Assembly (NCBI GenBank): GCA_963812135.1
Contig: CAWETU010000001.1
Coordinates: forward strand, 2,240,001 to 2,304,000
DNA: 64,000 nt
Reading direction: 5' to 3'
DNA from: Vulcanimicrobiota bacterium
GTDB lineage: Bacteria > Vulcanimicrobiota > Vulcanimicrobiia > Eremiobacterales > Eremiobacteraceae
Shown: positions 17,118-42,845 of the stretch, piece after piece
Position numbering within the stretch: position 1 is the first letter of the stretch
How the letters are laid out: each line of letters opens with the position of its first letter
Translations under genes and position numbers: made by a program
Notes under the pieces: generated by a model
Databases searched by the model: none
Told to the model about the DNA's origin: nothing
What the model saw: the letters and a program-made list of their open reading frames with translations, nothing else

Positions 17118-17174
17118 AAAAAGAAAGAACCAGCGCTTTTACGCTGGTTCTGGTGCGGGTGCAGACCTGTCACT
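17118..17174 (-). ncRNA. Antisense sRNA, locus 1 (complementary to the tRNA-like RNA)
   Basis: TATAAT at 17179-17184; 24-nt complement of 17293-17316; GAACCAGCG/CGCTGGTTC stem plus U-tract. Confidence 0.7.
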
Positions 17175-17258
17175 TATGATTATACCGTCTCCTTCGTAGA
17201 GGATCGCAAGGGGCCGGCGTCAGACCTGTGCCGCCGCCCCCTTCCGCATAGCGGAGGC

Positions 17259-17326
17259 TGGAGGCGTCGGGAATCGAACCCGAATGCACGACGTGACAGG
17301 TCCGCACCCGCACCAGCGGCGCCCCC
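17259..17326 (-). ncRNA. 68-nt compact tRNA-like RNA (Ala acceptor stem, GUC anticodon), locus 1
   Basis: GGGGGCG/CGCCTCC-A acceptor, CCGC-TGGT-GCGG D arm, CTGTCAC loop, TCGGG-TTCGATT-CCCGA T arm; TTGACG-18-TATCTA upstream. Confidence 0.75.
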
Positions 17327-17443
17327 AACCGCGTTAGATATCACGACGGCACCCGCAACGTCAAGAAGCGTGGCGGATCTGGCGACTCGCGTTTTCATTT
17401 TGCTTTCACGCGAAGGCTGGCTTGGGTTGCTATCCTTGGTGCT

Positions 17444-18775
17444 GTGAAGCTCCTGAGAAATTCTGCCCTCGCGTTGCTGGCTTTCGTGGTCCTTGCAGGT
17501 TGCGCCGGCGGTGGCGGCGCCGGCCTTCCACCGCCCGGCCCGACCCCGACGCCTCCGGCTGCGTCAAAAATCAAATACGTCATCATCATTTTCCAAGAGA
17601 ACCGCACGCCGGACAACCTGTTCCACGGTCTGCCGGGTGCCGACATCGCGAACAGCGGCACGAATTCGATGGGCCAAGTCGTGCCGCTCATCCCTGTGGA
17701 CATCACCGCACCGTACGATCTGGACCATAGCCATAAGGGTTTTACGACCGAATACAACGGCGGCGCGATGAACGGCTGGGATCTGGTCGGCGTGAATTGT
17801 CCAAGCCACGCTTGCAATCCGCAAACCGCGTTTGGTTACGTGCCGCAGGCCGAAGTGCAACCGTACTTCACGATGGCTGAGCGCTTCACGTTCGCCGACC
17901 GGATGTTCCAGACCAATCAGGGCCCGAGCTTCCCCGCGCACCAGTTCATCATCTCGGGTACGTCGACCGATTCGGTGGGCAGCACGCTGCTGGCCGCCGA
18001 GAACCCGAACTACTTCGCCAATAACAAGCTCGATTGCGACGGCTCGACCCAGTCGCTGGTGAAGATGATCGATCCGTCGGGCAGCGAGGCGACGTCATTG
18101 CGGCCCTGCTTCGATCACCCGACGCTGTTCGACTCGCTCGATGCCAAGGGTATCACCTGGCGTTACTACGATTCGTTCAACGGCGGCCTGTGGTCCGCGC
18201 CAGACGCGATCGCGCACATCCGCAACGGCACCGACTGGAACAACGTCAGCCTGCCGAGCTCCAATATCCTGACCGACATCTCGAGCGGGCAGCTGCGCCA
18301 GGTCTCGTGGGTCATCCCGTCAGCCGCCGCTTCCGACCACGCGCTCTCAACCGATGGCAGCGGACCGGCGTGGGTGGCGTCGGTCGTCAACGCGGTCGGC
18401 CAAAGCCAGTACTGGTCTAACACCGCGATCTTCATCACGTGGGATGACTGGGGAGGTTGGTTCGACCACGTCCAGCCGCAGATGTTCAATTCATACGAGT
18501 TGAGTTTCCGGGTCCCGTTGATCGTGGTGTCGCCCTACGCGAAGCCTGCGTACGTGTCGCACGTGCAGCACGAGTACGGCAGCATCCTGAAATACGTCGA
18601 AGAGACGTATGGCCTGCCGTCGCTCGGCTACACGGATGCGCGCGCGGACGATCTTTCGGATTGCTTCAACTACAGCCAAACGCCGATCGTCTTCCAAATG
18701 ATCCCGGCGGACCGCAAGGCGGCGGACTTCATCCGCGCGCCGATGGTCAACGTGCCGCCCGACGACGATTTTTAG
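17444..18775 (+). CDS. Phosphoesterase/phospholipase C family lipoprotein
   Basis: LAGC lipobox, QENRTPDN, GPSFPAH, TWDDWGGWFDHV, FRVPLIVVSPY. Confidence 0.92.
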   Translation: MKLLRNSALALLAFVVLAGCAGGGGAGLPPPGPTPTPPAASKIKYVIIIFQENRTPDNLFHGLPGADIANSGTNSMGQVVPLIPVDITAPYDLDHSHKGFTTEYNGGAMNGWDLVGVNCPSHACNPQTAFGYVPQAEVQPYFTMAERFTFADRMFQTNQGPSFPAHQFIISGTSTDSVGSTLLAAENPNYFANNKLDCDGSTQSLVKMIDPSGSEATSLRPCFDHPTLFDSLDAKGITWRYYDSFNGGLWSAPDAIAHIRNGTDWNNVSLPSSNILTDISSGQLRQVSWVIPSAAASDHALSTDGSGPAWVASVVNAVGQSQYWSNTAIFITWDDWGGWFDHVQPQMFNSYELSFRVPLIVVSPYAKPAYVSHVQHEYGSILKYVEETYGLPSLGYTDARADDLSDCFNYSQTPIVFQMIPADRKAADFIRAPMVNVPPDDDF

Positions 18776-18799
18776 GGTCGAATGAATTCGACCGCTACA
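18775..18799 (-). repeat. GTAG-type REP palindrome
   Basis: GGGTCGAATGAATTCGACCG+CTACA between convergent genes. Confidence 0.85.
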
Positions 18800-19273
18800 T
18801 CAGGCCTTGTCGTAGGCCTCTTGCAGGCCCTTGATGTCGATCTTGTTCATTTCGAGCATGGCTTTCATAACCGCGCTCGATTTTTTTTCGTCGTCGTCTC
18901 CCATAAGTTCGCCCAACGCCGACGGGATGATCTGCCACGACAGGCCGAATTTGTCGGTCAGCCAGCCGCACTGACTCTTCTTGCCGCCCTCGGACAGCCG
19001 CTCCCACAAGTCATCCACCTCTGTCTGTGTCTTGCAGTCGACGAAGAACGAGAAGGCCGGCGTCAACTGGAAGTGCGGCCCGCCGTTGAGCGCCATGATT
19101 TCTTGACCCTCGAGCTCGAAGGTCACGAACATCACAGATCCTTCCGAGCCAGGCCCTTCGTTACCGTGGCGCGAGACGTTCAGGATCTTCGAGTTCTTGA
19201 AGATCGACGTGTAGAATTTCGCCGCTTCTTCTGCTTTGTCGTCGAACCATAAGAACGGTCTGATCTTTTTCAC
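18800..19273 (-). CDS. VOC family protein (PhnB/3-demethylubiquinone-9 3-methyltransferase-like)
   Basis: PFLWF..AEEAA.FY, LNGGP, CGWL.DKFGLSWQI; own RBS and GTG start. Confidence 0.9.
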   Translation of the reverse strand: MKKIRPFLWFDDKAEEAAKFYTSIFKNSKILNVSRHGNEGPGSEGSVMFVTFELEGQEIMALNGGPHFQLTPAFSFFVDCKTQTEVDDLWERLSEGGKKSQCGWLTDKFGLSWQIIPSALGELMGDDDEKKSSAVMKAMLEMNKIDIKGLQEAYDKA

Positions 19274-19301
19274 GGATGTGTCCTTTGCTTTTACGCTGGT
19301 G

Positions 19302-19771
19302 TTAGAGTGTTGGCAGCAGTTCCGCGAGACGTCGAGCTGCTGGTTCCAGCCCTCGCTCATCCCTTCGAGCATGTAGGCCGCTTCCGGCGCAGCCTTGACC
19401 GGGGTTGCCTGCATCGAAATCTTGGTCTTACCGTTTTGATCGGTGAACGTGACGGTGCTGAGCACTTCGAGCACGACGTTGCCCTTGTCGTCCTCGACGA
19501 AGTGGGTCATGACGAGCCGTTCAGGCTCGACGACTTCGTGATACACGCCGTGCATCGGATAGATCGTGCCTTCGGGACCCCGCATGTGGATGCGAAGCTT
19601 GCCGCCCTTGCGCGCATCCGACTCGACGAGCGGCGCCGTGAAATGCTTGGGACCCCACCAGCGCGTCATCATCTTCGGATCGGTCCATGCTTTGAACACG
19701 AGACTGCGCGGCGCGTCGAACACGCGCGTGATCGTCAAGGTTGCCGCGGCCGGGCTATTTTTTGCGTCCAC
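19302..19771 (-). CDS. SRPBCC (AHSA1-like) domain protein (1-nt indel near the 3' end)
   Basis: TRVFDAPRSLVFKAWTDP, WWGP, GW...LD; restoring the frame gives LDRLAELLPTL*. Confidence 0.85.
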
Positions 19772-20105
19772 GTTTCTTCTCTTTCCCCTGGAGCTCGATG
19801 AGGTAATCGTCGAGTCTCTCGAAGCTTTGGTCCCAAAAACGCCGATAGCGCTCCATCCACTGCGCCACTTCTTTCAGCGGCGCGGCATCGAGCTTGCGAG
19901 GGCGCCGCTGCGCATCGCGGCTACGGGTGACGAGGCCGGCGCGCTCCAGCACCTTGAGGTGCTTGGAAATGGCCGGCAGCGTCATGTCGAATGGTCGCGC
20001 CAACTCGGTCACCGATCGTTGACCCGAGGCGAGCCGCGCGAGGATGGCGCGCCGGGTGGGGTCGGCGAGCGCCGCAAGGGTGTTGCTGAGGCGGTCGGCT
20101 GTCAT
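19755..20105 (-). CDS. ArsR/SmtB family transcriptional regulator
   Basis: ALADPTRRAIL..L, ISKHLKVLERAGLV. Confidence 0.93.
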   Translation of the reverse strand: MTADRLSNTLAALADPTRRAILARLASGQRSVTELARPFDMTLPAISKHLKVLERAGLVTRSRDAQRRPRKLDAAPLKEVAQWMERYRRFWDQSFERLDDYLIELQGKEKKRGRKK

Positions 20106-20120
20106 TTCCTCTGTCTTTAT

Positions 20121-20152
20121 GAACCTGTTGGTTATGTAACCTTTTGGTATAT
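20121..20152. promoter_or_regulatory. Putative ArsR operator (tandem AACC-N4-GGT(T/A) dyads)
   Basis: GAACCTGTTGGTTATGTAACCTTTTGGTAT just upstream of arsR. Confidence 0.55.
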
Positions 20153-20237
20153 TACACCTGGACGATCGGGCTGTCAAGCGCGGAAGCCCCAAAATTGTGA
20201 CGGCTGTCCAGCCGGCTATTTGGGTATTATCCGTACG

Positions 20238-20732
20238 ATGAAATCCACGCGTCTTTTCTTGCCCGTCGTGCTGCTGCTGCTCATCGCGTCGCCTGCCGTC
20301 GCCGACCTCGGTATGGATCTGCGCTGCAAGACTGCGGGGACTTCGATGCAGGCGTTGACCAAGCAGTGCGGGGTCGCGGGCGGGACGATCGCGGGCGCTG
20401 ATGCCCGGCTGTGCGTCGAGGCGCATGCGTCTGAGCTTGCACAAACAGCGTCGGTGTGCGTCTACGCGGCGCAAAATCACTATGCCGCGGCCCACGATCT
20501 TTCGGGCTACGATGCGGATCGCGAGCTCATCGGCGGCGCGACGTTCTTGGGCATCGCCGCAGAGGCCAACGTCTACCTCGAGCGGCGCGACCTCGCAACC
20601 GCGCAGCTTAAGTCTGTCATCACAATGGCGACGCAAGTGGCGTCCGATCCCCTTGCCGCCAACCTCACAGGCATGGCGTATAGCGAGCAGGCGGTCGCAA
20701 ATAGCTTGTTGCATTCGCTTGCCGCGAGATAA
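20238..20732 (+). CDS. Secreted hypothetical protein
   Basis: MKSTRLFLPVVLLLLIASPAVA signal peptide, 4 Cys. Confidence 0.7.
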   Translation: MKSTRLFLPVVLLLLIASPAVADLGMDLRCKTAGTSMQALTKQCGVAGGTIAGADARLCVEAHASELAQTASVCVYAAQNHYAAAHDLSGYDADRELIGGATFLGIAAEANVYLERRDLATAQLKSVITMATQVASDPLAANLTGMAYSEQAVANSLLHSLAAR

Positions 20733-20762
20733 ATGTGATCAGGGCTGAAGTCTCGCGCATTT

Positions 20763-20819
20763 GAAAACAGGTCGACCGCGCCTTTCAGCGCGGTCGATTG
20801 CTAACACTGGACCGTCACC
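20763..20819 (-). ncRNA. Antisense sRNA, locus 2
   Basis: TTGCAG-17-TATAAT promoter (20847-20852/20824-20829); 13-nt exact complement of 20943-20955, extendable with G.U pairs; 10-bp terminator stem. Confidence 0.72.
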
Positions 20820-20906
20820 TTAAATTATACCGATTCCTGAAGCGAGCTGCAAGTGGGCAGCGTCTGGTCCGTGGTCGCTGCCCGCTCTCCGCTTTGTATC
20901 GGAGGC

Positions 20907-20974
20907 TGGAGGCAGCGGGACTCGAACCCGCGACACGCGGCTTGACGGTCCAGTGCCGGCACCTGCCCACCCCC
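20907..20974 (-). ncRNA. 68-nt compact tRNA-like RNA (Ala acceptor stem, GUC anticodon), locus 2
   Basis: GGGGGTG/TGCCTCC-A, GGC-AGGT-GCC, CC-GTC-AA loop, GCGGG-TTCGAGT-CCCGC. Confidence 0.75.
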
Positions 20975-21026
20975 AACCAACCGCCCCTATCACTGAAAGC
21001 GCTCTGGCCGTAAAGGTCTTGGGGCG

Positions 21027-22488
21027 TTAGGGCAGGTCGACGATATCGCGGACGACCTCGTCCTCGGCGTCGAAAAACGGCCCGGGGTCGCCGGTCGCGT
21101 CGCCCACCATGACGGCGAAGATGACGCGCCCGTGGTGCAAGGTGTCGGCATAGCCGGTGAGGACGATCGCGTGCTGCATGTAGCCGGACTTGCCGTGCAC
21201 GCGGCCGACCGCATCGGTACCAACCAGCCGACCCGCCAACGTGCCGTCCATGCCGGCCCGCGGCAGCGCGTCGATGAAGTCGTTGCCGTACGAACGTTTG
21301 GCCGTCGAGCGTAGAATGACGACGAGCGTGCGCGGCGTGATGCGATCGGCAGCGCACAAGCCCGAGCCGTCTTGAGCATCGAGCGAGTCCTTGTCGATGC
21401 CGAGCTCTTGCACGGCAAAACGCTGCTCGACCGTCGCGCCGCCGATGAAATTGCCGCGTTGGGATAGCTTGCGCACCGCGAGCATCTTGAGGATGTGCTC
21501 CGCGATGAAGTTATCGCTTTTGGGCAGCATGGTGCGCAGGATGTCGATAAGCGGCGGCGAGTCATGGATCCATACGAGCGTCCCGGTCGCGATCTGTGCT
21601 TTCGGGAGCGGGGTATCATCGATGACGTCAAGCGGCACGTTCGGCGGCGGCGGCCCGGCAGCGACAGTGCCGACGCGGATGCCCGCCGCGACGAGGACGC
21701 TGCGTAGCGTCTTGACCGCGAAATCGGCCGTATCTTCGACCGCGCAGTGCAGCGTGTCTTCCGAAGAGCCGACCGGCATGCGACCAACGATAAGTATTTG
21801 CGTCGTGCCGAGACGGCGCGAACACCGCGCCGGGTCTTCGTATGGTCCCGAGCCCATGGTGGCGCGCGACGCGATGGTGTAGCCGGCGCTCGGACTGAGC
21901 AGTCTTGCGGATACAAGGTCGCCGCTGCGCGCGCCGGGGCTGATGACGACGCCGACCGTGCCTTCGTCGACGGCGAGCGCTTGGATGGGCGCTTGATAAT
22001 AGAACGGGGTGCCATCCCAGGCCCAATCCGGGCCCCAGCGGCGTTGGTCGAACAGCGTCGTGTCGGCAAGCACCGTGCCGCTCACCTCGCGGATCCCCGC
22101 GCGCGTGACGGCCGCAGCGGCGTCGACGAGATCGTTGGACGTCAGCATCGGATCGCCGCCGCCGACCAGGATGAGGTCGCCGTGCAGCACGCCATTGTCG
22201 ATGGTGCCGCGCGCGCGCAGCGACGTCGTGAATCGGAACTGCGGACCGAGGACGTCGAGCGCCGTCGCGGAGAGCAGGACTTTGAAGCTCGACGCGGGCG
22301 TGAAGGTGTGGTCGGCCTGATACGAGGCGAGCACGTGGCCGGTTGCCGCTTCGAGCGCGAACACGCCGAGTTGTGCGTGATTCATCGGGGCACGACGCGC
22401 GATGGACTCGACGGTAGCCTGCAGCGAATCTGCGCGCACGCCGACCGGCGCGAGGAACGCGCCAGAAGACCAGCGCCGCGAGCGCCAT
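21027..22488 (-). CDS. dacB: D-alanyl-D-alanine carboxypeptidase/endopeptidase (PBP4, S13); frameshift in the signal region
   Basis: PASSFK, GGGDP, SDN, DGSGL, KSG motifs. Confidence 0.92.
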
Positions 22489-22502
22489 GCGCCGAATCGT
22501 CG

Positions 22503-23318
22503 TCAGGGCAGCACGCCGAACACCAGCGTTTGGCCCGGATATTCCGGCAGCGTGAGATGGAGCGAGTCATATTTGAGCGGCAGGACTTCGCCGCTTTGCG
22601 GATCGCGCATGTCGAACGGGCCGATCACCGTCCATTGCGCGGGCGAGAGAACGTCGAGATCGGTCCAGAGCCGGGTGAAATCTTTGCTCGCCGCGCGCAG
22701 CGATGTGATGAGGCCTTCGAAATCGCGGTCGCCGACGTATTCCGCGTACTCGGCGCGGAACGCCGCGACGAGCCGGCCCGCGTAGTCTTCCCAACGCGGA
22801 AATACGGTGCGCGCGTCTTTGTCGGTGAACAGCTTCCACAGCGCGTTGCGTTCGAGGCCGGGCGACGTGTGATCGAGCTTCTGCATCTTGCCGAAGCGAT
22901 CGTTCCACGCGAGGTAGTCGAAGCGCGAGTTGCGCAGATAGGCGTAGCCGTCTGTGAAGCGCTCGACGAGGTGGCGGACGCCGTCGTCCACCTCCATCTC
23001 CCACACGTGGGGCTGGTCGGTGTGCGGCCGGACGAGCTTTTGCAGGTATTCTATTTCGGAGGAGGTGAGGCGCAGCGCCGAGCCGATGCGTTCGAGCGTC
23101 TCCTCGCTGACGGCGATCGGGCGTCCTTGCTCGAGCCACGTGTACCACGTCAACCCGACGTCGGCGAGCAGCGCGACTTCTTCGCGGCGCAGACCTTTGA
23201 CGCGCCGTCGCACGCCTGACGGCAAGCCGAGGTCCGCGGGCGCAAGCCGTTCGCGCCGCGATCGAAGGAATGAGGCGATCTCAGCGTGACGGTCGCTGCG
23301 GGCTGGAACACCTGACAT
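22503..23318 (-). CDS. XRE HTH regulator with MmyB-like ligand-binding domain
   Basis: FLRSRRER, GLRREEVA.LA.V..WYTWLEQGR. Confidence 0.92.
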   Translation of the reverse strand: MSGVPARSDRHAEIASFLRSRRERLAPADLGLPSGVRRRVKGLRREEVALLADVGLTWYTWLEQGRPIAVSEETLERIGSALRLTSSEIEYLQKLVRPHTDQPHVWEMEVDDGVRHLVERFTDGYAYLRNSRFDYLAWNDRFGKMQKLDHTSPGLERNALWKLFTDKDARTVFPRWEDYAGRLVAAFRAEYAEYVGDRDFEGLITSLRAASKDFTRLWTDLDVLSPAQWTVIGPFDMRDPQSGEVLPLKYDSLHLTLPEYPGQTLVFGVLP

Positions 23319-23400
23319 CGTGGAAAGCGACTTCGACCGGTCGCTTCAGGTCCCTAGCCCATGACCGTAGGGACAGCGCGTGCGCGGGTGCGGGAATCGG

Positions 23401-23565
23401 CTATGCGATCACGTCCGTCCGGTCACTGGGGTCTGCTGGAACCGCCGGCGGTTCGAACAGCTCGTCAATCCGGCCGGCTTTGAGGCACTCGTCGCAAATA
23501 TGATGCGCCGTGCCGGGAACCAAAAACACTTCGCCGCTGGACTGACAGATATCACACCGTTGCAT
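23401..23565 (-). CDS. Small zinc-finger protein (54 aa)
   Basis: CDIC...ICDEC, GAGG RBS. Confidence 0.55.
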   Translation of the reverse strand: MQRCDICQSSGEVFLVPGTAHHICDECLKAGRIDELFEPPAVPADPSDRTDVIA

Positions 23566-23650
23566 AGTGGGCCTCAATTTTGCGCCCCGGTACGAGGGGC
23601 GGGTTATGTTTGTTTCGCGTCTGTGTACCGTGCCCTGCAAGCGTACAGCG

Positions 23651-24007
23651 ATGCGTAAGTATGTCGATATCTCGCAGCATCGTCTTAGAATGCTTGGGAA
23701 CAATGATATCGAACCATTTTGCCCCCCAGCAGGGCTTCCGGTCAAATCGGAGGCGGTGATGAGTCCTCTCGAAATATGCAATATCCTCGTCAGGCACGAT
23801 CCAATCCATATAGATGCCGGAGACGACACCTACTCGATCGAGTCGCGAGTTCTCGCTCGCAGGTTCTCGAAGAACACCAGCGTGGCGGATTGGCGGCGCG
23901 CGGTGCACGAGGATATGGAGTTTTGGTCGGACGACGAGGCGGCTGGCTCCGAAGAAAGCTATCAGTCGATCGCGCAAGAGCTCTGGAACGGTTTTCACCT
24001 CAATTGA
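23651..24007 (+). CDS. Hypothetical protein
   Basis: Acidic ORF ending before a hairpin. Confidence 0.5.
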   Translation: MRKYVDISQHRLRMLGNNDIEPFCPPAGLPVKSEAVMSPLEICNILVRHDPIHIDAGDDTYSIESRVLARRFSKNTSVADWRRAVHEDMEFWSDDEAAGSEESYQSIAQELWNGFHLN

Positions 24008-24026
24008 ACGCGCTCGGATAAGATAG

Positions 24027-24055
24027 CGGCCCCGCGCACGTCACGCGCGGGGCCG
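24027..24055. terminator. 11-bp hairpin between convergent ORFs
   Basis: CGGCCCCGCGC-acgtcac-GCGCGGGGCCG. Confidence 0.55.
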
Positions 24056-24080
24056 AGCGGAATTCCGACGAAGCGAATCG

Positions 24081-24806: not shown

Positions 24807-24817
24807 ATCAATGCTCC

Positions 24818-25815: not shown

Positions 25816-26865
25816 TCATTTCGTGCATGCGAAGCTGATCCGGAAGTTCGGCGGATTGACGGTGTAATGGGGCCTCCCAACGCGTACGTTCTGCTTGGCA
25901 GCGTCGAATGGTACGATCAGTTTCGCCGGCTTGTCGTTGGGGTCGAGGGGGCCTTGGCGGAAGCGCTGCTGGTACGTGAACGAACTGCCCGGCGCGAAGG
26001 TGCGGTTCATCAACTGCCCCCAGTTCATCGACGAGCCAGCGCTGTTGGTCACCCCTATGGTGTTTCCGCTCGCCAGCGCGAGCTGCTGCTCGCTCGTGTT
26101 GGTGTCGCCTGGCGCGAGCGGACTACTCGTCACATTGACCCAGTCCTCCGTGATCATCCAGCCGACCTGCGGATTGCTGGGATTGTTGTCGTTGCCATAG
26201 TCGGGTCCGAACGCGGTGGCTCTGACCTTCCATATCCCGTTGGACATCCACTGGTTCAAGCAGCCCTCTTTGGCCGGGATCTCCGACGAACCACCTTGGG
26301 CCGCCGCCGTCGTCGCGCTCGCGGTGCAGTCGAGCTTGATCCGGAAGTCATATTTTTTGGTGGAGAATTGCGGCTGGAACCTGGCTTGCGATAGCTTTGC
26401 GTTGTCGAACGAGATGATCAGCGCCTTGGGCTTGTTGTTCGCATCCACCGCGCCCTTTGCCGATCGAAACATCTGCACGTATTGGAACTGGCCCGACGCG
26501 GGCAGGGCATGCGAGTCGATCACCGACTGCGACATTTGAGACGTATTGGTGTCGGTCGTGGAGAGCGAGGTGCCGTCGGTGAGCTGGAGCTGCTGCGGTT
26601 TGGTGAAGCTGTTACCGGGAGCGATGTTCTGAGTCGTGCCGTTGCGCCACACCTCGGTCACTTGCCAGCCGACCTGCTGGGCACCGTCCATGAGCGGTTC
26701 AACTTTGGTCGCCTGAACGCGCCAGACACCGTTGAACATCCATTGATTCATGCAGCCTTCGCTGGTCGTCGCGTCACCGGCGCTCGTCGAGCGCACGCTG
26801 ATCAACGCGATGAGGATTAGACCAGCCGCTAACGACAGCGCCGGCCGTACCAGGAAATGCCGCAT
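25816..26865 (-). CDS. Secreted protein with a tandemly duplicated domain
   Basis: Signal peptide; EGCMNQWMFNGVWRV and EGCLNQWMSNGIWKV units, each ending FRI...CT. Confidence 0.85.
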   Translation of the reverse strand: MRHFLVRPALSLAAGLILIALISVRSTSAGDATTSEGCMNQWMFNGVWRVQATKVEPLMDGAQQVGWQVTEVWRNGTTQNIAPGNSFTKPQQLQLTDGTSLSTTDTNTSQMSQSVIDSHALPASGQFQYVQMFRSAKGAVDANNKPKALIISFDNAKLSQARFQPQFSTKKYDFRIKLDCTASATTAAAQGGSSEIPAKEGCLNQWMSNGIWKVRATAFGPDYGNDNNPSNPQVGWMITEDWVNVTSSPLAPGDTNTSEQQLALASGNTIGVTNSAGSSMNWGQLMNRTFAPGSSFTYQQRFRQGPLDPNDKPAKLIVPFDAAKQNVRVGRPHYTVNPPNFRISFACTK

Positions 26866-28815: not shown

Positions 28816-28816
28816 A

Positions 28817-35125: not shown

Positions 35126-35157
35126 AGCAGGCCAGGACCACGCTCTGCCGGCAGAAA

Positions 35158-36234
35158 ATGATACATATTGTGAAGCCGCTGATAGGCTCCATTCTCGCCG
35201 TTTTTATCGTGGCAGTTGCGCTGCTGTCCCCGTGTGCGGCGAGCCAAGCGGGTGGAACGCCGCCGACCATGCACGTCGCTCCCACGCCGCACCCGACTCC
35301 GCGTCCGACTCCCAAGCCTGTGTTGCCAGCGCCAAGGGCTCTGCACTACACGACGAATCCCGACACGTGCGTTCATGAAGGCGACGGTCCAAGCCAGTGC
35401 TCATGGTTGACGCACGGCAAGGCAATCGATGTGTATTGGGACTGGAGATGCAGCGACATGCCCTGCGCCCTCGAGGGCTTCCATCTGAGGTTGGCTGGCG
35501 GGGGCCGCTCCGGTGGTCCTGGGAGAGTCGTTGGGATCTCAAGTGCACACTTCATCGTCCAAGACGAGCCAAAAGGCGGCTGGCACGCGGTATGTTACGT
35601 CGTGACTGCGTACCCATTGTCGCGCCTCGCCGCTGCCGAATCCAAGCCGAGTCCGAAGATCTGCATCCATGAGACGTCCAAGACCGTGACCATCAAGGCG
35701 GATAAGGCGCGCGGTTACACCGGCAATATTGGAATCTGTACAGCGACAACAATCCACAAGTGCAGACCTTCCCGGCGATCGGGTTCAGACTTAATCGTCG
35801 GCGATACATTCTTCGAGAGCAACCAAAGCCAGACGAACTCGTTCCAGCGCGCCGCCTACGCGTTCGATCTCTCAGCGATCGCCGGCAACAGCCTGTTCGG
35901 TGGAAGCTTCGCGTACACCGGGCCCGGGCAATCCCACCCGCAGTTGCGCGGATCTCCATCGTGCTCCGAGCGACTGGGCGAGCAAGTCCTGGGTCGTCGC
36001 TGGGGGCGGTCCGCTGCCCGGAAAGTTCGCGAGGATGGATCAACGGTATCGTGGCCCATCAATAAGCTCGTGGAGAGTTGGAACCGGTCAACGCCGTTCG
36101 TGCTGCTCCTCGAAGAAGTCAACGGAGTCGGTTATGCCGAGTACATCAAGAGCAGCGTCGTGCCGTATACGTTCTCGTGTCAAGCGGTCATCATCAACCC
36201 AAGGCTGCTGCTGAGGGTCGGCGTGACAGAATAA
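35158..36234 (+). CDS. Secreted Cys-containing hypothetical protein (possible internal frame slips)
   Basis: Signal peptide, PTP linker, CYVVTAY...ES.PS FN3-like end. Confidence 0.6.
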   Translation: MIHIVKPLIGSILAVFIVAVALLSPCAASQAGGTPPTMHVAPTPHPTPRPTPKPVLPAPRALHYTTNPDTCVHEGDGPSQCSWLTHGKAIDVYWDWRCSDMPCALEGFHLRLAGGGRSGGPGRVVGISSAHFIVQDEPKGGWHAVCYVVTAYPLSRLAAAESKPSPKICIHETSKTVTIKADKARGYTGNIGICTATTIHKCRPSRRSGSDLIVGDTFFESNQSQTNSFQRAAYAFDLSAIAGNSLFGGSFAYTGPGQSHPQLRGSPSCSERLGEQVLGRRWGRSAARKVREDGSTVSWPINKLVESWNRSTPFVLLLEEVNGVGYAEYIKSSVVPYTFSCQAVIINPRLLLRVGVTE

Positions 36235-36256
36235 CCGGTTCTGGGTGGCGCCGGCG

Positions 36257-38997
36257 TCAGGCTGTGGCGGAGCGTGCCATGTGGGCGATCAGCTCGGCGC
36301 GTGACGCCAACCCGAGTTTGTTGAGGATCGCTGAGGCGTGCGTTTCGACTGTACGCTCGCCGACCGTCAGCGCTCTGAGGCGACGATTGGATTTGCCTTG
36401 CGCGATGAGCTGTGCCGACCTCGAGCTCGCGGGGACTCAAGCCTTGCGGGCCAGATGCCCTTGGTCTTCCGCGCCGGCGGGCTGAGGTCTCGAGGCGCTG
36501 CGCGTCTCTTTTGTCGCCTATCTTCTTATAGAGCTCGAGCGCCTTGTCGCGTTCGCCGGCGGTTTCGAGCGCCTGGGCTTCGTATAGATGCCAGCCGAGA
36601 TCGTGGAATTGCGCGGCGGCGCGCTCGCCGAGCGCGCGTGCGTCTTGGGGTTTGTTCTTCTCTTTGCGCGAGCCGAGCGTCGAAGAGCGTCAGATAGGCG
36701 CGCGCATCGTGCTCTTTTTCGTGCTTGAGCGTTCCGGCGCGTTTGAGCAGCTCGCGCGCGCGTTTGACTTGGGCCTGGTCGCCGTGCACCGCGATGTGGA
36801 CGAAGATGACGTTGTCGGTCTGCTTGTCCGCAAGGGCGTCGAGCGCGGTCAGGGCCCGATCGATGATGCCGTGCGCGTCGTCAAAGCGCCCGCGCGCTAC
36901 GGCGTAGTCGATATAGGCGCAGGCCGCGTACGGCACGGCGCTCTCGTCGAGTCCTTCGACAAGTTCGAAGAAATCGCGACGCGCGCGTGCGTTCGACGAG
37001 TTTCGTCGTCGAGCGTGAGCAGGCCGACCGCGATGCCGATGCGCGCAGCGACGACATCGAATTTTTGGCAGGTCGATCTCCATGGCGAGCGCTTGGGTGA
37101 CGAGCTCGCGCGCGCGCTCGAGGTCGCCGAAACGATAGCAGGTGAGCGCGTATTGCAAGCAGGCAGAAACCGGCGGAGACGCTGCGCAGCCGATGCGTCT
37201 CTGATGAGCTCGCGCGCTTGTTCGAAGAGCTCGAGCGTTTGGTGGCGGGCGCGCAGTTTGCCGAGATTGACGGCGACGTTGCCCAGCGCCCGCACGGACG
37301 CCTTCGATGTCGCCGGCGGCTTGCGCGATGTCAGGGCTGCGCGTTCGCAGTTATCGACGCGCCGATCTGCATCGCCCGCGGTCACTGAGCGCGATGGCGA
37401 GGAACTGATAGCAAGCGCGACTGCTTCAGGCCGCGGGCCGCTCGCCTGTGTAGAGCTCTGCCAGCGCGAGATGTTCGAGCGCGCCGGTGGCGTCGTCTTG
37501 GAAGACGCGCAGACCGGCGAGGCTCACGTGCGCGTTGAAGATGCAGCACGTCATCGGGATCGGTGGCGGCGCCGAGCGCGCGTTCGAAGAGCTCTTTCGC
37601 GCCAGCTACATCGCCGGTGTTGAACGCGAGATGGCCCGCTATCTAATGATAGAGCGCCGAGACGTACCGGGATCGCCGGAGCGCTCGTGATGAGGAGCGA
37701 TTGCACGTCGAACGCATCGCGCGCCTTGGCGGCCGAGCCCCGTGATGCAAGGCGAGCGCGAACTTGCGGAACAGCTCGCTTCTGCCCGCATCGTCTGACC
37801 GTGGCGCGTCGAGCGCGCGCTCGTAGGACTGCGCCGCGAACGCATGGGCGAAGAGGGCTTCCGCCTCGTCGCCGGCGCGCTCATCGTAGGCGGCGGCTTT
37901 CGCAGGCTCGCCGGCGTTGCGCCAATGGTACGAGAGTTCGGTCGCGCTCGAGCCCGGTCTGCGCTGCGAGCGCCGTGGCGATCTTGGCGTGCAGCGCGCT
38001 GCGTTGCGCGCCAGCAGCTCATTGTAGATGGCATCGCGCGTTAACACGTGGCCGGAATGTGAAGACGGGCTGCTCGGCGGGTTCTTCGACGATCAACTGC
38101 TGATCGCGAGCGCGTTTGAGGGCCTCGAGGACTTGCTCGCTCGGCCGCTCGGCGATCGCGGCAGCGAACGCGACCGAGAAATGACGCCCGATGACTGCGG
38201 CGCGCTCGAGGACGGCGCGCGTCTCTACGTCGCACTGCCGGAAGCGCTCGAGGACGATCTGCTCGACTGAAGAGGGAACGTCGCCGCGCGCGAGGCTGAC
38301 CGCAGCTTGCGTCGAGCAGCGTCCGCAACAGCTCTTCGGCGAAGAGGGGATTGCCTTCGGCCCTGCCTCTGACCGCATCGGCGACGCCGGACGAGCCAGG
38401 CCGGCTCTCGAGGACGTCATGGATCAGCGTTTGGATGTCGGCGTCGTCGATCGGAGGCAGCTCGAGCCGCGCCACTGACGGATCTCTGCCGAGTTTGGCG
38501 AGCACCGCGCCCAGCGCTTCGCCGCGTCGCGCGTCTTCAGCCCGCAGCGTCGCGAGCATCAACACGCGCGATCGCCCGATCGAGGTGGCGACGTGCGCGA
38601 AGAGCTCGAGCGAATCGTTGTCTGCCCACTGGAGATCCTCGACGACGACGATGACCGGCTGGCTCGCTGCGGCGTCGACAATCGTCTTGACGATGGTCTC
38701 GAACTGTGCCCATTTGTCGGCTTGCGGCGCGAATTCGTGACCCGTGAGCTCGCGATAGATGGCGCGGAACGGCACGTACGGGATCTGAAGATGTTGGAAG
38801 CACTGGCCGATGGCGACGCGGCTTTGCGTGGCATCGCGAATCAGCTGCGCGACGAGCCGGCTCTTGCCGATGCCGGCATCGCCCACGATAAGCACAGTCG
38901 AGCCGCGGCCTTGGGCCGCGGCTTCGTTGCGTTCGCGCAGGTCGGCGAGTTCTTGACGCCGGCCCGCAAAACGCTCAAAGACGATCGGAGTTACCAC
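36257..38997 (-). CDS. LuxR-family STAND regulator (AAA ATPase-TPR-HTH), multiply frameshifted
   Basis: GDAGIGKS, EDLQWAD, EGNPLFAEE, C-terminal SPRELEV...ERTVETH...KLG. Confidence 0.85.
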
Positions 38998-39056
38998 GGT
39001 CGCCTCAACCCGGCGTGGATTTCACCCTTGCTCGGTACGCGACGCAAGTTGAGAAG

Positions 39057-40652
39057 CTAGAGCCTGGAGCGCACGAGGCCGGCCAATATCGAGGCGATGG
39101 CGTCGGGGCTGCCCGGATCGTGCAGCGTCACGGCGATCTGTACGAGGTTGCCGTGTTGGAGGACGAACCGCTCACCGCATGTCCCCGGCCTTGATTCCGT
39201 ACTGCAAGACCCAGCTGGCTGTTCGCCCGATTTTTCAAGAGCGGCCGCATACGATTGCGGCCACACCACGACGGTGACGACCGTGTACAGCATGTCATTG
39301 AAGTCTTTGAGCGTGATCGCGTAGTAGCAGGCCGAGCCTCCGCCATGCAGCACGACAGGACTACCAACGGCGCCGCTCACCTCTCCCGTACTGAGCAAGG
39401 CGTTGCACGACTTGTTGACGACAGGCGGGCTGCTTGACGGTGAAGGTGACGGCGTCGGCTGCAACTTGCAATATGAGTCCAACGAAATTCCAGTGAGCCT
39501 GATCTTCGCGCCGCTTTTCCCGCCGGACATCGACACGTAGGCTATCCCTGGTGCGGCGCGCGTTGTGGGCGGCGGGTTGCCGGTGCTGCCGGCCGGACAT
39601 TTGCAGCCCTGCGGCAGCGTGCAAAAGTAGCCGTTGAGCGCGCCGCCCGCGATTTCGTCGCGATTCGCGAAGCTGACGTGTCCGTGCAGCGACGAGGTGA
39701 CGATCTGGACGATATCGGCTTCGAGCTTCGCGAGGAAGATCTCGTTCGTGTATGCTGCGGCCGCAAACGGCCCCTTTGAGATCCCGTTGCTCACCGTATA
39801 CAGTTTGAGCTCGTCGATCGTCTTCGTGATGCCTGGCCCATCCGAATCCCAACCCGTCGGATCGAGCGACGGGTCCCTGACGCGAGAGCGAGCGTAGCTC
39901 GATGCCCAGCGGATCTCGAAGTTGTCGGGATCCCCGGCGATGGCGAGCGCGTATGCTGCGGCATTGTCGCCCTTCTTGAGCATACCGTCGAAGAGAGGCC
40001 ATGGATTGATGCCGACATACTTCATCTCGGCATAGAAGCCGAGCGCGTCAGGGCCGCGGTCAAAGAGCGGCTTGCCCGGTTCCGTGAAATAATCGGCCCA
40101 ATAGCCAGCGCCGGAGATGTTGGTGCCTGCAAGCGTTGCCCCCACCCACTCGGCTTGGCCTTCGAGGAGCCAACCCGGGGCGTTGTGATAGGACGTCCCC
40201 GTCGCGAAGTCGTCGAGTTGGAAGCAATGGAAATCTTCGTGGCCCGCGATCTCTAGCTGTTCCTGGGCTGGCGCGGCCTGCCCGCTTGGGTTGATGTAAA
40301 TGACGCATTTCACAGGCTTGCCCGAGCGCTGCCCTGTCGCGTCTGGATAGTCCGTGTAAGCCTGGGCCGCCCCCTGTTGCTGCGTCGCATTGATAACGAC
40401 GATGACCGGCAGCGCGGAGTTGCGCCCCATGTTCGCGGCGATCTGAGCTCGTGCGGAACTGATGAGCTCTTCCCAATGCGTCTGCGTGGCATTGGCTTCG
40501 CTCGGGCGAGCGCCGTAGCACATCACTACCAATAGCGTCGCGGCCGTCGCAAGAGCGCGAACCGCTACGCCAGCAACGGAGACAGCTGTGCTCGTCATAC
40601 CCATGGCCCCTTCAATGAGAGTTGGCGATGAAAGGCTTGCGCATGTAGGCAC
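39057..40652 (-). CDS. Secreted putative zinc metalloprotease (gluzincin-like)
   Basis: GHEDFHCFQ...WLLEGQAEW; start uncertain. Confidence 0.75.
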   Translation of the reverse strand: MPTCASLSSPTLIEGAMGMTSTAVSVAGVAVRALATAATLLVVMCYGARPSEANATQTHWEELISSARAQIAANMGRNSALPVIVVINATQQQGAAQAYTDYPDATGQRSGKPVKCVIYINPSGQAAPAQEQLEIAGHEDFHCFQLDDFATGTSYHNAPGWLLEGQAEWVGATLAGTNISGAGYWADYFTEPGKPLFDRGPDALGFYAEMKYVGINPWPLFDGMLKKGDNAAAYALAIAGDPDNFEIRWASSYARSRVRDPSLDPTGWDSDGPGITKTIDELKLYTVSNGISKGPFAAAAYTNEIFLAKLEADIVQIVTSSLHGHVSFANRDEIAGGALNGYFCTLPQGCKCPAGSTGNPPPTTRAAPGIAYVSMSGGKSGAKIRLTGISLDSYCKLQPTPSPSPSSSPPVVNKSCNALLSTGEVSGAVGSPVVLHGGGSACYYAITLKDFNDMLYTVVTVVVWPQSYAAALEKSGEQPAGSCSTESRPGTCGERFVLQHGNLVQIAVTLHDPGSPDAIASILAGLVRSRL

Positions 40653-40678
40653 CCAAAAGTAGGCGCTGCGAGCACACG

Positions 40679-40888
40679 CTATTTCTTGGCTTTGGAGCGC
40701 CTGCGTGGGCGCAATCCGTCATCGGTCAGGTCGATGCTTGTCCGCAGCTCGTGCAGTTGTGCGGGTCGAAGGCGTACTTCGAGAAACGTGTCTTTGGATT
40801 CGAGCAGCAGACGGGCGAGACGCCGGTTCGCGATGGCGGCGGCGTGGAACGATCCGCGTCGAAACGCAACGACAAGTCTTTTCATCAT
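40679..40888 (-). CDS. Small basic hypothetical protein
   Basis: AAGGAG RBS, last gene of the TA/HNH run. Confidence 0.5.
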   Translation of the reverse strand: MMKRLVVAFRRGSFHAAAIANRRLARLLLESKDTFLEVRLRPAQLHELRTSIDLTDDGLRPRRRSKAKK

Positions 40889-40895
40889 TGCTCCT

Positions 40896-41207
40896 TCACA
40901 GGCGCAGCTCCGCGACCAGCCGAGATACTTTCTGCAGGTGCGCCGGATCTGGCGCAGCGCGCGCGTTTCTGCTTTGATTGCAAAGTTTGTGGGCTAGGCG
41001 CAAGTTGTCGAGCTCTCCCCTCCGGCCACCTTGACTGACGGGTACGATATGGTCGACGGTTGGGGCACATGGATGACTCTGTCTTTTCTGGCCCTTCAAA
41101 CCCTCGTATGGCGCGTCGAAATACATCGGCAGACGGCAAATCTGACAGTTCCGTCCGTCGCGCTTGACCAAGGTCCGGATGATGGCGTGGAGCGTGACCT
41201 TGCTCAT
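40896..41207 (-). CDS. HNH endonuclease
   Basis: RDG..CQIC, TVDHIVP.SQGG...NL.LAH..CN. Confidence 0.9.
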   Translation of the reverse strand: MSKVTLHAIIRTLVKRDGRNCQICRLPMYFDAPYEGLKGQKRQSHPCAPTVDHIVPVSQGGRRGELDNLRLAHKLCNQSRNARAAPDPAHLQKVSRLVAELRL

Positions 41208-41216
41208 TCTGAGCTT

Positions 41217-41558
41217 TTACAAGAACAGGGAAACCGGCACCTTGAAGAATTTCGCAAAGCTCTTAGCCGCGTTCACACCGATCTTCCGTTTGCCCGCGAG
41301 CATCTGACTCGCGGTGCCTTTCGACTTGATGATCGCACCCAGCTCTGAGACCGTCAGGCCGCGCGCTTGCATCAGCTCCCGCAGAATATCAGCGGGCGCC
41401 GCCTGTTCGGGCCACGGATAATGCTCCTCCTCGTACTTTTCGATCAGCGTGGCGATCAGATCGAGATACGCCTCTAGCGCGGGCGTCAAGGTTCGCGCCG
41501 CGAGGAGATCTCGAGCCTCGGCGAGCGCCTTCTTGTGCTCATGCTCTGTGCGGATCAT
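41217..41558 (-). CDS. HigA-like HTH antitoxin
   Basis: IRTE.E...AL, L..LIEKYEEEH, LM..RGL...EL, GKRKI. Confidence 0.85.
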   Translation of the reverse strand: MIRTEHEHKKALAEARDLLAARTLTPALEAYLDLIATLIEKYEEEHYPWPEQAAPADILRELMQARGLTVSELGAIIKSKGTASQMLAGKRKIGVNAAKSFAKFFKVPVSLFL

Positions 41559-41570
41559 AGCAACCTGCTA

Positions 41571-41921
41571 CTAGTCCTTTTTTCGTGGCGCATGCACGCC
41601 GCCTACCGCCCGCGTTACGAGTTGAGGCGCCCATTCAATGACACGCAACAGATTACGTGCAAGCTGATCGGGTTTTGACCGTCCTTGTTCCCACTGCTGA
41701 ATGGTTCGTTGGCTAAGGCGGAACCGCCGCGCAAATTCGCTTTGCGACAAGCCGAGCCTACGGCGAATCGCCTTCACATTCGGCGGTCGCGGGTTAAACG
41801 GCCGATGGAAATGGAGCTCCTCCAGCTTTATGCCCAGCGCCGCACGCTCTTCCGCCGCAAGCCGCGCTATGGTGGCCTCGTCGTGGGACTTGATGAGCTC
41901 CCAGTTAATTCTCCCCTTCAT
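41571..41921 (-). CDS. XRE HTH antitoxin-like protein
   Basis: VKAIRRRLGLSQSEFA...TIQQWEQGR..PD. Confidence 0.85.
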   Translation of the reverse strand: MKGRINWELIKSHDEATIARLAAEERAALGIKLEELHFHRPFNPRPPNVKAIRRRLGLSQSEFARRFRLSQRTIQQWEQGRSKPDQLARNLLRVIEWAPQLVTRAVGGVHAPRKKD

Positions 41922-42219
41922 CTCGATACCCCATATGTCGAGCATATTCGTCGATCTCTGATCGCTCGGACTTCCACGCGGTGATGATTCGTTTGCGATC
42001 GCCTCTCATCGTATAGACAGCAGTGATGAACAAATCGCCCGTACACCCGATCGCTTTCATCTGCTCTTCGCCGTCGGCGCGATAACGGATCCAAGCATCG
42101 ACATAGTTCTCCCCCTCGAACATCTCCGCGACGACGTGAAAATCGAAACCATGCCGCGCGAAGATTTCCTCGCTCTTGTCCAGGTCCCATTCAAAATGTT
42201 CGTCGATATAATCGGGCAC
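41905..42219 (-). CDS. BrnT family toxin
   Basis: FEWD..K....HG.DF, GEE...AIG, VYT.RG...RIITA. Confidence 0.85.
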   Translation of the reverse strand: MPDYIDEHFEWDLDKSEEIFARHGFDFHVVAEMFEGENYVDAWIRYRADGEEQMKAIGCTGDLFITAVYTMRGDRKRIITAWKSERSEIDEYARHMGYRDEGEN

Positions 42220-42302
42220 GGCGACCGTCCAAGAGAATCCAGCTATACGTTTTACAACGTACTACGTTGGAAGCGTACAGCGCTTAACATGCACGCTGCG
42301 CT

Positions 42303-42327
42303 CGGTCGAATGAATTCGACCGCTACA
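42303..42327 (-). repeat. GTAG-type REP palindrome
   Basis: CGGTCGAATGAATTCGACCGCTACA. Confidence 0.85.
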
Positions 42328-42493
42328 GTGCGACCGAACGCATGTTCGGTATCACGCCGACCGCTCCGACCGTCAAGAGCCGCGTGGAGTTGTACGATCC
42401 AGCTGGCAAGACCGTGCGTAGCAGCCGCCTCGTCGCTCGGCGATCGCGTAACGGTGAGTGGCCGGCCATGAACGGGTTCATGAGCGCCGGCTT

Positions 42494-42518
42494 GGGTCGA
42501 GTAAACTCGACCGCTACA
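42494..42518 (-). repeat. GTAG-type REP palindrome with a compensatory pair
   Basis: GGTCGAG-TAAA-CTCGACC (A:T changed to G:C). Confidence 0.85.
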
Positions 42519-42602
42519 GACTTCTTGCTCCGGCTGTTATTCGGGAGTGACAAAGCGGCGCGAACTCAAGAAGGGCTGAGCCGCATGGGCAGATCCATTC
42601 CG

Positions 42603-42658
42603 AAAAAAAGCGAGACCACCGCACTTTTGCGGTGGTCTCGGCGAGTCCGTCAAACCAC
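42603..42658 (-). ncRNA. Antisense-family sRNA, locus 4
   Basis: TTGAGC-17-TATACT with extended TG; GTGGTTTGACGGACTCGCC; 12-bp stem plus T7. Confidence 0.68.
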
Positions 42659-42736
42659 GCCGTTAGTATAGCATAGCCTTCCGATAAGCTCAAACTTCGG
42701 GGCGCCGAGTTTGCTGCCACGCGCCCCTCAAGCATT

Positions 42737-42763
42737 TCGCCCGCCCACCAGGGACTTGCCCCC
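42737..42763 (-). pseudogene. 5' remnant of the tRNA-like RNA, locus 4
   Basis: TTGGTT-GGGGGCA-AGT-CCC-TGGT-GGG-CGGGCGA, then no anticodon loop or T arm; TTGACA upstream. Confidence 0.55.
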
Positions 42764-42845
42764 AACCAAGCCTGTTGTCACGCTGCGCCGAGCCGGTGTC
42801 AAGACACAACGGGAATGCGCTTGGCAACGGTGTAGGACTACGAGC

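Follow-up and report, generated by a model that had tools for sequence, protein, structure and literature searches.

A family of paired RNA genes was identified in the genome of a Vulcanimicrobiota bacterium (assembly GCA_963812135.1), starting from a 64,000-nt stretch of contig CAWETU010000001.1 (positions 2,240,001 to 2,304,000), referred to here as the window. Four loci in the window belong to the family, two complete units (units 1 and 2) and two partial ones (loci 3 and 4). A complete unit contains a compact transfer RNA (tRNA)-like RNA that carries the identity elements for alanine together with a non-alanine anticodon triplet, followed by a small RNA (sRNA) whose 5′ end co-varies as antisense to the anticodon arm of that tRNA-like RNA. 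Among the loci sampled, 19 of 41 sRNA genes lack an intact partner, whereas none of the 57 intact tRNA-like RNAs lacks an sRNA gene, which lends indirect support to a toxin/antidote interpretation. We regard it as an evenly balanced possibility that each unit is an RNA-only toxin/antidote pair.

Distribution of the family

The family was delimited with a covariance model, R1, which was built from eight copies with 91.1% of their cloverleaf cells paired; the search with this model was confined to genomes of the phylum Vulcanimicrobiota. Such a search had been proposed in a first-pass annotation of the window made from its sequence alone, and it returned 57 intact tRNA-like copies (at least 47.9 bits), all of them in two sister families of the phylum, f1 and f2. 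In f1, 25 copies scoring at least 48 bits are present in 13 of 32 genomes, one to four in each and at mostly non-syntenic sites, and BLAST in 41 related genomes located full units in further genomes of the genus and family. Across an even sample of the phylum (151 genomes), R1 matched 3 of 8 genomes of f1 (besides G000), 24 of 71 of f2, and none of the 71 genomes from 19 other families. Three unpublished genomes (G010, G013 and G183) enter the denominators only. One diverged unit (L051, G011:C11:247902-247977) scores 37.9 bits yet has G3.U70, A73 and a matching downstream guide, as the antisense part of the sRNA is called here; the 48-bit threshold therefore undercounts the family.

A degenerate-pattern scan of public contigs revealed one true unit (L118, 58.2 bits) among 80 loci examined. 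It sits on a contig of a Vulcanimicrobiota metagenome-assembled genome, and the other matches listed were mainly ordinary CCA-less tRNA-Ala genes. Exact-pattern scans of viral contigs gave no match with either the f1 or the f2 pattern, both of them narrow, and a similarly narrow blastn search with unit 1 against phages and plasmids gave no match. Full-text searches of the accessible literature found no account of a tRNA-like gene paired with an antisense sRNA gene of its own.

The f2 units lack the two hairpins found between the tRNA-like and sRNA parts of units 1 and 2, and they often form tandem arrays with a spacing of ~310 nt and differing guides. Locus L047 (G045:C1:322000-334000) has three units inside 6 kb. 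One of these units is separated by 96 nt from a tyrosine-integrase gene in divergent orientation (4823-5797), and the locus also contains an open reading frame (ORF) for an Xre/MbcA/ParS-type antitoxin at 6706-7116. With its patchy and non-syntenic occurrence, its arrays and the integrase and type II antitoxin neighbours of this one cluster, the family appears to be distributed like a selfish element. In several f2 genomes (L173, L175), the unit arrays are convergent to a radical-SAM gene, which is probably plain synteny.

Conserved features of the tRNA-like RNA

The cloverleaf fold is well supported by covariation. In total, 92.2% of 1242 cells are paired, compared with 43–57% in slid controls; 17 of the 22 pairs change on both sides, and compensatory changes are present in four helices. 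The RNA has the four arms of a tRNA, with a 7-bp acceptor stem, a 5-bp T-stem, a T-loop of the form UUCRANY (UUCGAUU in 43/57) and a D-loop containing GG (UGGU in 35/57). It departs from tRNA in its D-stem of 2–4 bp, its anticodon stem of 8 bp with one bulge and its missing variable loop, only 0–1 nt lying between the anticodon stem and the T-stem.

G1-C72, G3.U70 and A73 are each present in 57/57 copies, so that every copy has the G3:U70 and A73 combination of an alanine acceptor; CCA is encoded in 0/57. G3:U70 is the established alanine determinant and is sufficient for alanyl-tRNA synthetase (AlaRS), which ignores the anticodon (PMC11415595, in the part of the text available). Acceptor pairs 5–7 change on both sides in 23, 24 and 28 sequences, respectively, and the invariance of G3.U70 while neighbouring pairs co-vary is as expected from selection for AlaRS recognition. 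Judged by the alignment, the alanine identity elements are under selection.

The anticodon-like loop is 7 nt long in 55/57 copies. Within these, G34 and A37 are each found in 52/55, and 37 loops have U at position 33, 17 have C and 1 has G. Of the triplets, GUC was found 19 times, GAU 21 and GAC 6, with six other triplets in the remaining 9; GUC prevails in f1 (18 of 25 copies) and GAU in f2 (20 of 30), and the rarer triplets besides these two are GAC, GAG, GCG, GUA, GCC, CUC, ACC and UGA. The first-pass annotation had described the RNA as a compact chimera of alanine and aspartate tRNAs. Its compactness, alanine identity elements and non-alanine anticodon were borne out by covariation over the 57 units, but the aspartate part is not constant across the family, given the diversity of triplets.

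No ARAGORN gene and no Rfam match at gathering thresholds was obtained in the window in these checks of novelty, which the same annotation had proposed. At relaxed Rfam thresholds, the tRNA-like parts touch the transfer-messenger RNA (tmRNA), permuted-tmRNA and tRNA models below their cut-offs. ARAGORN calls four f2 units (in 3 of 10 loci), as tRNA-Ile(GAU), tRNA-Val(GAC), tRNA-Asp(GUC) and tRNA-Arg(GCG), which places part of the family at the edge of the tRNA definition.

Promoters and pairing of the sRNA

After each tRNA-like RNA comes a TAnnnT promoter (P2) and then a terminated RNA of ~55 nt. P2 is of the consensus type (TTGCA, 17 nt, TAnnnT), and TAnnnT stands directly 5′ of the guide in 55/57 units; all f1 units (25/25) share the T, A and T of the -10 box as well as the G of the TTG at -35. 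The promoter before the tRNA-like gene (P1) has an NGNGA-type box 8–20 nt upstream of G1 in 54/57 and a -35-like box in 49/57. It is weak and non-consensus (-35 TTGAC/TTTAC, -10 region GTGAT/GGGAT), not of the TAnnnT type, and we take its box to be similar to the -10 boxes of stress sigma factors. On sequence grounds, the sRNA is probably a gene of its own, with a conserved promoter that is also kept by orphan copies.

Pairing was analysed in an alignment of 25 complete f1 units. The sRNA 5′ end forms 21 pairs with the tRNA-like RNA, from the D-loop GGUU via the 5′ strand of the anticodon stem to A37. Of 516 cells, 89.9% are paired, against 29–37% when the partner was slid by 1–3 columns. Two-sided changes affect 18 of the 21 pairs and amount to 102 cells, and none of the 500 shuffles equalled the alignment in any measure. 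The 5′ 21–33 nt of the sRNA co-vary as antisense to the D-arm, anticodon stem and loop. In the same 25 units, the loop of the GC hairpin forms 9 pairs with the anticodon arm, with 88.9% of cells paired and 8 of 9 pairs changing on both sides. Covariation thus upholds the earlier proposal that the GC-hairpin loop and a separate sRNA are both antisense to the anticodon arm, a proposal whose author had regarded homologues without sRNA-target co-variation as evidence to the contrary. The f2 pairing extends from acceptor position 6 to the anticodon loop with one internal loop, and the orthologous units of G000 and G042 (from another genus) differ by compensatory changes.

The sRNAs favour their own partners. 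Ungapped complementarity between a tRNA-like RNA and its own downstream region averaged 38.7 in f1, compared with 20.7 (standard deviation 5.5) for other units, and 31.3 in f2, compared with 20.8 (standard deviation 3.9). Inside arrays, the mean score was 33.3 for cognate partners and 22.8 for neighbours. Ungapped scoring was used instead of RNAduplex energies, which allow huge internal loops and gave no discrimination between cognate and non-cognate pairs. As in RNA antitoxins, the putative antitoxin RNA is complementary to the transcript of the putative toxin and specific for its own partner.

The sRNA was also considered as a leaderless non-stop mini-ORF beginning at NUGAC. This was rejected; NTG is found in some f1 units only, and no f2 frame is conserved.

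One-sided decay of the units

The fate of the two partners was followed in f2, in which 101 genomes were searched with an sRNA gene and 29 gave a match. Forty-nine same-strand rows to E ~2e-6 were considered and 8 were left out (2 at contig ends, 2 matching the terminator end only, 3 not fetched and 1 in an unpublished genome), leaving 41 sRNA loci. An intact tRNA-like RNA (at least 44.7 bits) lies just upstream in 22 of them; 9 have a remnant and 10 have no tRNA-like RNA within 230 nt. The remnants show deletion of the 5′ half, deletion of the T-arm and 3′ strand, an internal deletion joining both acceptor ends, splitting of the T-arm by a repeat element or replacement of the 5′ acceptor strand. 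The orphan sRNA genes retain both promoter and terminator.

The R1 search, which is blind to the sRNA, found 0/57 intact tRNA-like RNAs without a downstream sRNA gene. At L174:1189 the sRNA gene is present and complementarity is weak. The only sRNA-less copy encountered (L050) carries mutations in its acceptor stem, and another genome has an intact unit at the syntenic site. Loci 3 and 4 of the window match this pattern of one-sided decay. The reverse polarity, in which the sRNA would be toxic to the anticodon loops of real tRNAs and the tRNA-like RNA would be a decoy, was rejected, orphan sRNA genes being common.

At L212, L229, L210 and L217 (f2), short repeat elements are found within or in place of the tRNA-like gene, of the type ...CCTGAGCTTGTCGAAG... 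in L212 and L229 and ...GTCATCCCGAGCGTAG... in L210. Such elements may be agents of tRNA-like gene disruption.

Anatomy of the four window loci

All four loci are on the minus strand of the window, where the first-pass annotation had placed them, and share parts of one layout. Their features are as follows.

17364-17116, minus strand: unit 1, complete unit
17339..17364, minus strand: unit 1 P1, promoter-like, with -35 TTGACG at 17364-17359, a 14-nt spacer, GTGATA at 17344-17339 and ~9 nt to the leader
17259..17330, minus strand: unit 1 tRNA-like RNA, leader GGUU 17330-17327 and 68-nt body 17326-17259; acceptor GGGGGCG/CGCCUCC with G3.U70, A73 at 17259, T-loop UUCGAUU
17297-17295, minus strand: unit 1 anticodon-like GUC, in the 7-nt loop CUGUCAC
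17256-17242, minus strand: unit 1 short hairpin
17240-17211, minus strand: unit 1 GC hairpin, loop ACAGGUC (17229-17223) antisense to the anticodon arm
17116..17209, minus strand: unit 1 sRNA gene, with TTGCGA at 17209-17204, a 19-nt spacer and TATAAT at 17184-17179
17173-17150, minus strand: unit 1 guide
17151-17126, minus strand: unit 1 terminator (11 pairs), then a U tract
21014-20763, minus strand: unit 2, whole, layout as in unit 1
21014-21009 and 20993-20988, minus strand: unit 2 P1, TTTACG and GTGATA
20978-20975 and 20974-20907, minus strand: unit 2 tRNA-like RNA, leader and 68-nt body, anticodon-like loop CCGUCAA
~20904-20887, minus strand: unit 2 short hairpin
20883-20855, minus strand: unit 2 GC hairpin
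20852-20847 and 20829-20824, minus strand: unit 2 P2, TTGCAG and TATAAT with a 17-nt spacer
20818-20805, minus strand: unit 2 sRNA, guide
20797-20772, minus strand: unit 2 sRNA, terminator
29576-29494, minus strand: locus 3, orphan sRNA gene, with TTGCCA at 29576-29571, TATAAT at 29556-29551, guide UUGACGAGCCAGCGCUGGAACC and terminator 29526-29501
42802-42603, minus strand: locus 4, decayed unit, with P1 TTGACA at 42802-42797 and retained leader plus 5′ acceptor GGTTGGGGGC at 42767-42758
42670-42665, 42642-42610 and 42603, minus strand: locus 4 sRNA gene, intact, with TATACT, terminator and end

The tRNA-like RNAs of units 1 and 2 score 84.2 and 83.6 bits with R1, and a T-arm-plus-acceptor pattern matches these two units only in the whole 2.79-Mb genome. 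The minimum-energy fold of the unit 1 RNA is the four-arm cloverleaf (-33.8 kcal/mol), and the RNA scores 27.5 bits with the Rfam tmRNA model, short of the gathering score of 47. Elsewhere the genome has an ordinary tmRNA, a tRNA-Asp and three tRNA-Ala genes, and this tmRNA has the same acceptor stem as unit 1. GGTTGGGGG occurs three times in the window compared with 0.31 expected, a count reached by 1/100 shuffles.

As had been described, the tRNA-like part is intact in two loci, deleted in one (locus 4) and absent from one (locus 3), and the sRNA is present in all four. In locus 4, the tRNA body and T-arm are gone; neither locus 3 nor locus 4 gives an R1 match, and the locus 3 guide has no partner anywhere in the genome. 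The sRNAs of unit 1 and locus 4 have fold z values of -4.35 and -5.37. In units 1 and 2, the sRNA opens with sequence antisense to the anticodon loop. The intrinsic terminators differ from the 6-nt loop proposed for the shared layout, which is present only in locus 3; the loop is 4 nt in units 1 and 2 and in locus 4.

The claim that each sRNA fits its own neighbour held for the family as a whole and for unit 1, whose guide has a single strong genome match besides itself, its own tRNA-like RNA (24 nt, 1 mismatch). For unit 2, the perfect match between the guide and its tRNA-like RNA covers 13 nt, no better than two chance matches in the genome, and lengthens to 28 nt once mismatches are allowed. 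The locus 3 guide has a 15-nt perfect complement at 26030-26044, inside the minus-strand ORF 25819-26865 (E 0.038), which may be chance.

Genomic surroundings

Each of the four window sRNAs is followed by an ORF on the same strand. Downstream of unit 1 is the minus-strand ORF 16870-17043 (49–57 aa), with promoter-like and ribosome-binding sequences of its own, and the sequence that follows the orthologous unit in G042 is ~92% identical to this stretch, intergenic part included. Five genomes of the genus have no counterpart of the locus 3 sRNA in front of their orthologous LemA gene. Downstream of locus 4 on the minus strand, an ORF for a BrnT-family toxin (41908-42219) overlaps one for a helix-turn-helix (HTH)/MqsA-like antitoxin (41574-41945). 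An HNH ORF (40899-41207) and an AAA_16 ATPase ORF (38044-38997) are also present. Analysis of 26 ORFs at 24–47 kb with PADLOC and NCBIfam yielded only the HTH/MqsA-like antitoxin and weak matches, and no defence system linked to the units.

A recent island insertion was considered for loci 3 and 4 and rejected; in the unit-free genome G005 of the same genus, the flanks are on one contig, ~12–16 kb apart. At 42300-42328, a palindrome of ~28 nt (GGTCGAAT..ATTCGACC core) recurs with 94–100% identity at many sites in G000, G001, G005 and G006 and looks like a repetitive extragenic palindromic (REP)-like element. The window has a GC content of 0.51–0.57 at 48000-57000, compared with 0.60–0.67 elsewhere, and this low-GC stretch may be a foreign island.

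A proposed RNA toxin and its antidote

The interpretation of the units as toxin and antidote, both made of RNA, is drawn from the co-evolution of the two RNA genes, the alanine identity and tRNA tertiary signatures, the better promoter of the antisense RNA, its cognate specificity, the patchy multi-copy distribution and the earlier loss of the tRNA-like partner. In this model, the tRNA-like RNA would be trimmed like a CCA-less tRNA precursor, receive CCA and be alanylated by AlaRS, and the sRNA would be produced in excess. Pairing would begin at the anticodon loop and unzip the D-arm and anticodon stem to yield a duplex of 21–33 bp, which would spare the acceptor/T minihelix, destroy the L-shape and anticodon arm, and probably be long enough for RNase III. 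The duplex would inactivate or destabilize only the partner encoded by the same unit. Free tRNA-like RNA would be harmful to the cell, speculatively by insertion of alanine at Asp, Ile or Val codons or else by occupying the ribosomal A site, EF-Tu, AlaRS or processing enzymes. P1 may, again speculatively, respond to an alternative stress-type sigma factor. It is a tentative proposition, which we think possible but would not favour, that the units form a new class of RNA-only toxin-antitoxin or abortive infection system, in which a mischarging Ala-tRNA with an Asp, Ile, Val or other anticodon is silenced by a co-evolving anti-anticodon sRNA.

Several observations weigh against this model. Position 33 is C or G in 18/55 loops, and the long bulged anticodon stem and the absence of a variable loop, which are unlike those of decoding tRNAs, make ribosomal use uncertain; codon misreading may be limited by the 8-bp bulged stem and by C33, which is frequent. 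In eight f1 loci, ARAGORN called no unit, the best score with RF00005 was 26.7 (gathering 29), and tmRNA models reached sub-threshold scores of 23–31 bits (gathering 47) with only the tRNA-like ends aligned. In folding energy, the two window tRNA-like RNAs do not surpass shuffled sequences (z -1.39 and -0.02), and unit 2 does not take the cloverleaf as its minimum-energy fold, so that its assignment relies on covariation. Units 1 and 2 have four promoters between them, none of which is recognized by a generic sigma-70 scan; they were accepted because they are conserved. The own partner is top-ranked in 17/25 f1 and 17/32 f2 units (34/57), and although the remaining units are mostly near-identical orthologues, a non-cognate RNA ranks first there and cross-pairing is possible. 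The decay asymmetry could also come from a second, useful target of the sRNA, and the fact that the tRNA-like gene never occurs without the sRNA could partly reflect its need for a terminator in cis, since none separates the two parts.

Alternative explanations

An unlikely, if coherent, alternative is that the tRNA-like RNA is a useful and switchable alanyl-tRNA-like RNA, for instance for mistranslation under stress, as a tmRNA-like rescue helper or as an alanine donor for cell wall or lipid, with the sRNA an ordinary off-switch and no addiction. The conserved alanine identity and tRNA tertiary signatures are consistent with such a role, as are the tmRNA acceptor shared by unit 1, the sub-threshold tmRNA matches (23–31 bits) and the distinct, non-consensus P1, which could be stress-dependent; encoded mistranslating tRNAs are also known (PMC11415595, available part). 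A useful RNA of this kind is harder to reconcile with a patchy, non-syntenic distribution in many copies with differing guides, and with 19/41 sRNA genes outlasting their tRNA-like partners but never the reverse. Moreover, there is no tag reading frame, and a non-ribosomal donor has no need of a conserved 7-nt anticodon-like loop.

It is improbable that the sRNA regulates other mRNAs and the tRNA-like RNA is a sponge or decoy. Orphan sRNA genes persist with intact promoters, the locus 3 guide has its 15-nt complement at 26030-26044 (E 0.038), and tRNA-linked sponges are known, as in the 3′ external transcribed spacer (3'ETS) of leuZ. Yet nearly all guide positions vary freely and co-vary with the adjoining tRNA-like RNA (18/21 pairs on both sides), so there can be no external target that is conserved across units. 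In the genome, the unit 1 guide matches nothing strongly except its own partner, and a sponge has no need of G3.U70 and A73 in 57/57 copies.

Quite improbable, too, is a single structured transcript in which the tRNA-like part is an RNase P/Z handle or folding domain and the presumed sRNA is the 3′ strand of a long-range helix. No terminator lies between the parts, so P1 transcripts must continue into the sRNA, and in f2 only ~20 nt separate A73 from the P2 -35 box. Against this, the -35/-10 boxes are conserved exactly 5′ of the guide, 19 loci retain promoter and sRNA without the upstream part, and a handle need not complement its cargo.

We consider it very improbable that the sRNA is a cis leader or attenuator of the downstream gene, opened in trans by the tRNA-like RNA via the AACC foot of the terminator. 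Although the four window sRNAs precede same-strand ORFs and most f1 units have a terminator stem that overlaps with the GGUU:AACC pairing, the next downstream element in f2 arrays is another unit, some units face a convergent gene or tRNA gene, the ORF 3′ of unit 1 has promoter-like and ribosome-binding sequences of its own, and orthologous LemA genes lack the element. Hardly credible is an origin as attachment (att)-site relics at tRNA/tmRNA genes, or as a tRNA-derived miniature mobile element without RNA function, which would account for the G045 unit 96 nt from an integrase gene and for the tmRNA-like T-arm and 3′ acceptor, but not for the presence and covariation of both acceptor strands or the compensatory changes in four helices and the intermolecular helix, with no copy requiring flanking direct repeats as an explanation and no match in phage, plasmid and viral collections (narrow searches).

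Comparison with known systems

In type I toxin-antitoxin loci (ibs/sib, ldr/rdl, hok/sok), an antisense RNA from a strong promoter neutralizes a weakly expressed neighbour by loop-initiated pairing. Repeated type I loci occur as several diverged copies per genome that are cognate-specific, and orphan antitoxins are common. The units described here resemble them in their diverged copies, in the fit of each antisense RNA to its own partner and in their orphan antisense RNAs. They differ in that type I systems employ an antisense RNA opposite to an mRNA for a toxic peptide, whereas the present units are encoded on the same strand, have no conserved ORF and have a tRNA-like target.

In type VIII systems, of which SdsR/RyeA is one and CreTA another, both partners are RNA, as in the present units, and the toxin proposed here would likewise disturb the tRNA/translation economy. 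In CreTA, CreT sequesters a rare tRNA via a mini-ORF and CreA needs Cascade to repress transcription (PMC8501985, available part). As far as that part of the report goes, the present units differ in having no Cas component, an effector that is itself tRNA-shaped and control by direct RNA-RNA pairing.

Allo-tRNAs and other irregular tRNAs of soil bacteria have an acceptor identity that mismatches the anticodon and are often near toxin-antitoxin genes; they are sometimes polycistronic, and some variants are lethal in E. coli (PMC5389517, available part). The present RNAs share with allo-tRNAs and mistranslating tRNAs the disagreement between acceptor identity and anticodon, on the available parts of both reports (PMC5389517, PMC11415595). 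Allo-tRNAs, as presented in the portion available, combine acceptor/T stems of 8/4 or 9/3 bp with a long variable arm, whereas the present RNAs have co-varying stems of 7 + 5 bp, no variable loop and an 8-bp anticodon stem, which sets them outside the allo-tRNAs. The words 'antisense' and 'complementary' have 0 occurrences in the main text of PMC5389517, supplements excluded. The tRNA-like domain of tmRNA (RF00023, RF04321) resembles the present RNAs in its acceptor with G3.U70, in A73, in T-arm sequence and in the reduction of its D-arm. Unlike tmRNA, the present RNAs have no mRNA-like domain, tag frame or pseudoknots, and ARAGORN finds no tmRNA in the units; a candidate reading frame noticed in the unit 1 sRNA is not shared by the other units.

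Implications

To our knowledge, there is almost no experimental RNA biology in Vulcanimicrobiota. Even without toxicity, the units constitute a conserved family, with more than 57 members and no Rfam model, in which two non-coding RNA genes co-evolve. If the toxin/antidote interpretation is true, a tRNA itself would be the poison and base-pairing to its anticodon arm the antidote, which would add a mechanism to toxin-antitoxin biology. It would also explain the survival of mis-identity tRNA genes and their closeness to toxin-antitoxin loci, and the units would provide compact, naturally orthogonal RNA-RNA switches for the control of tRNA activity.

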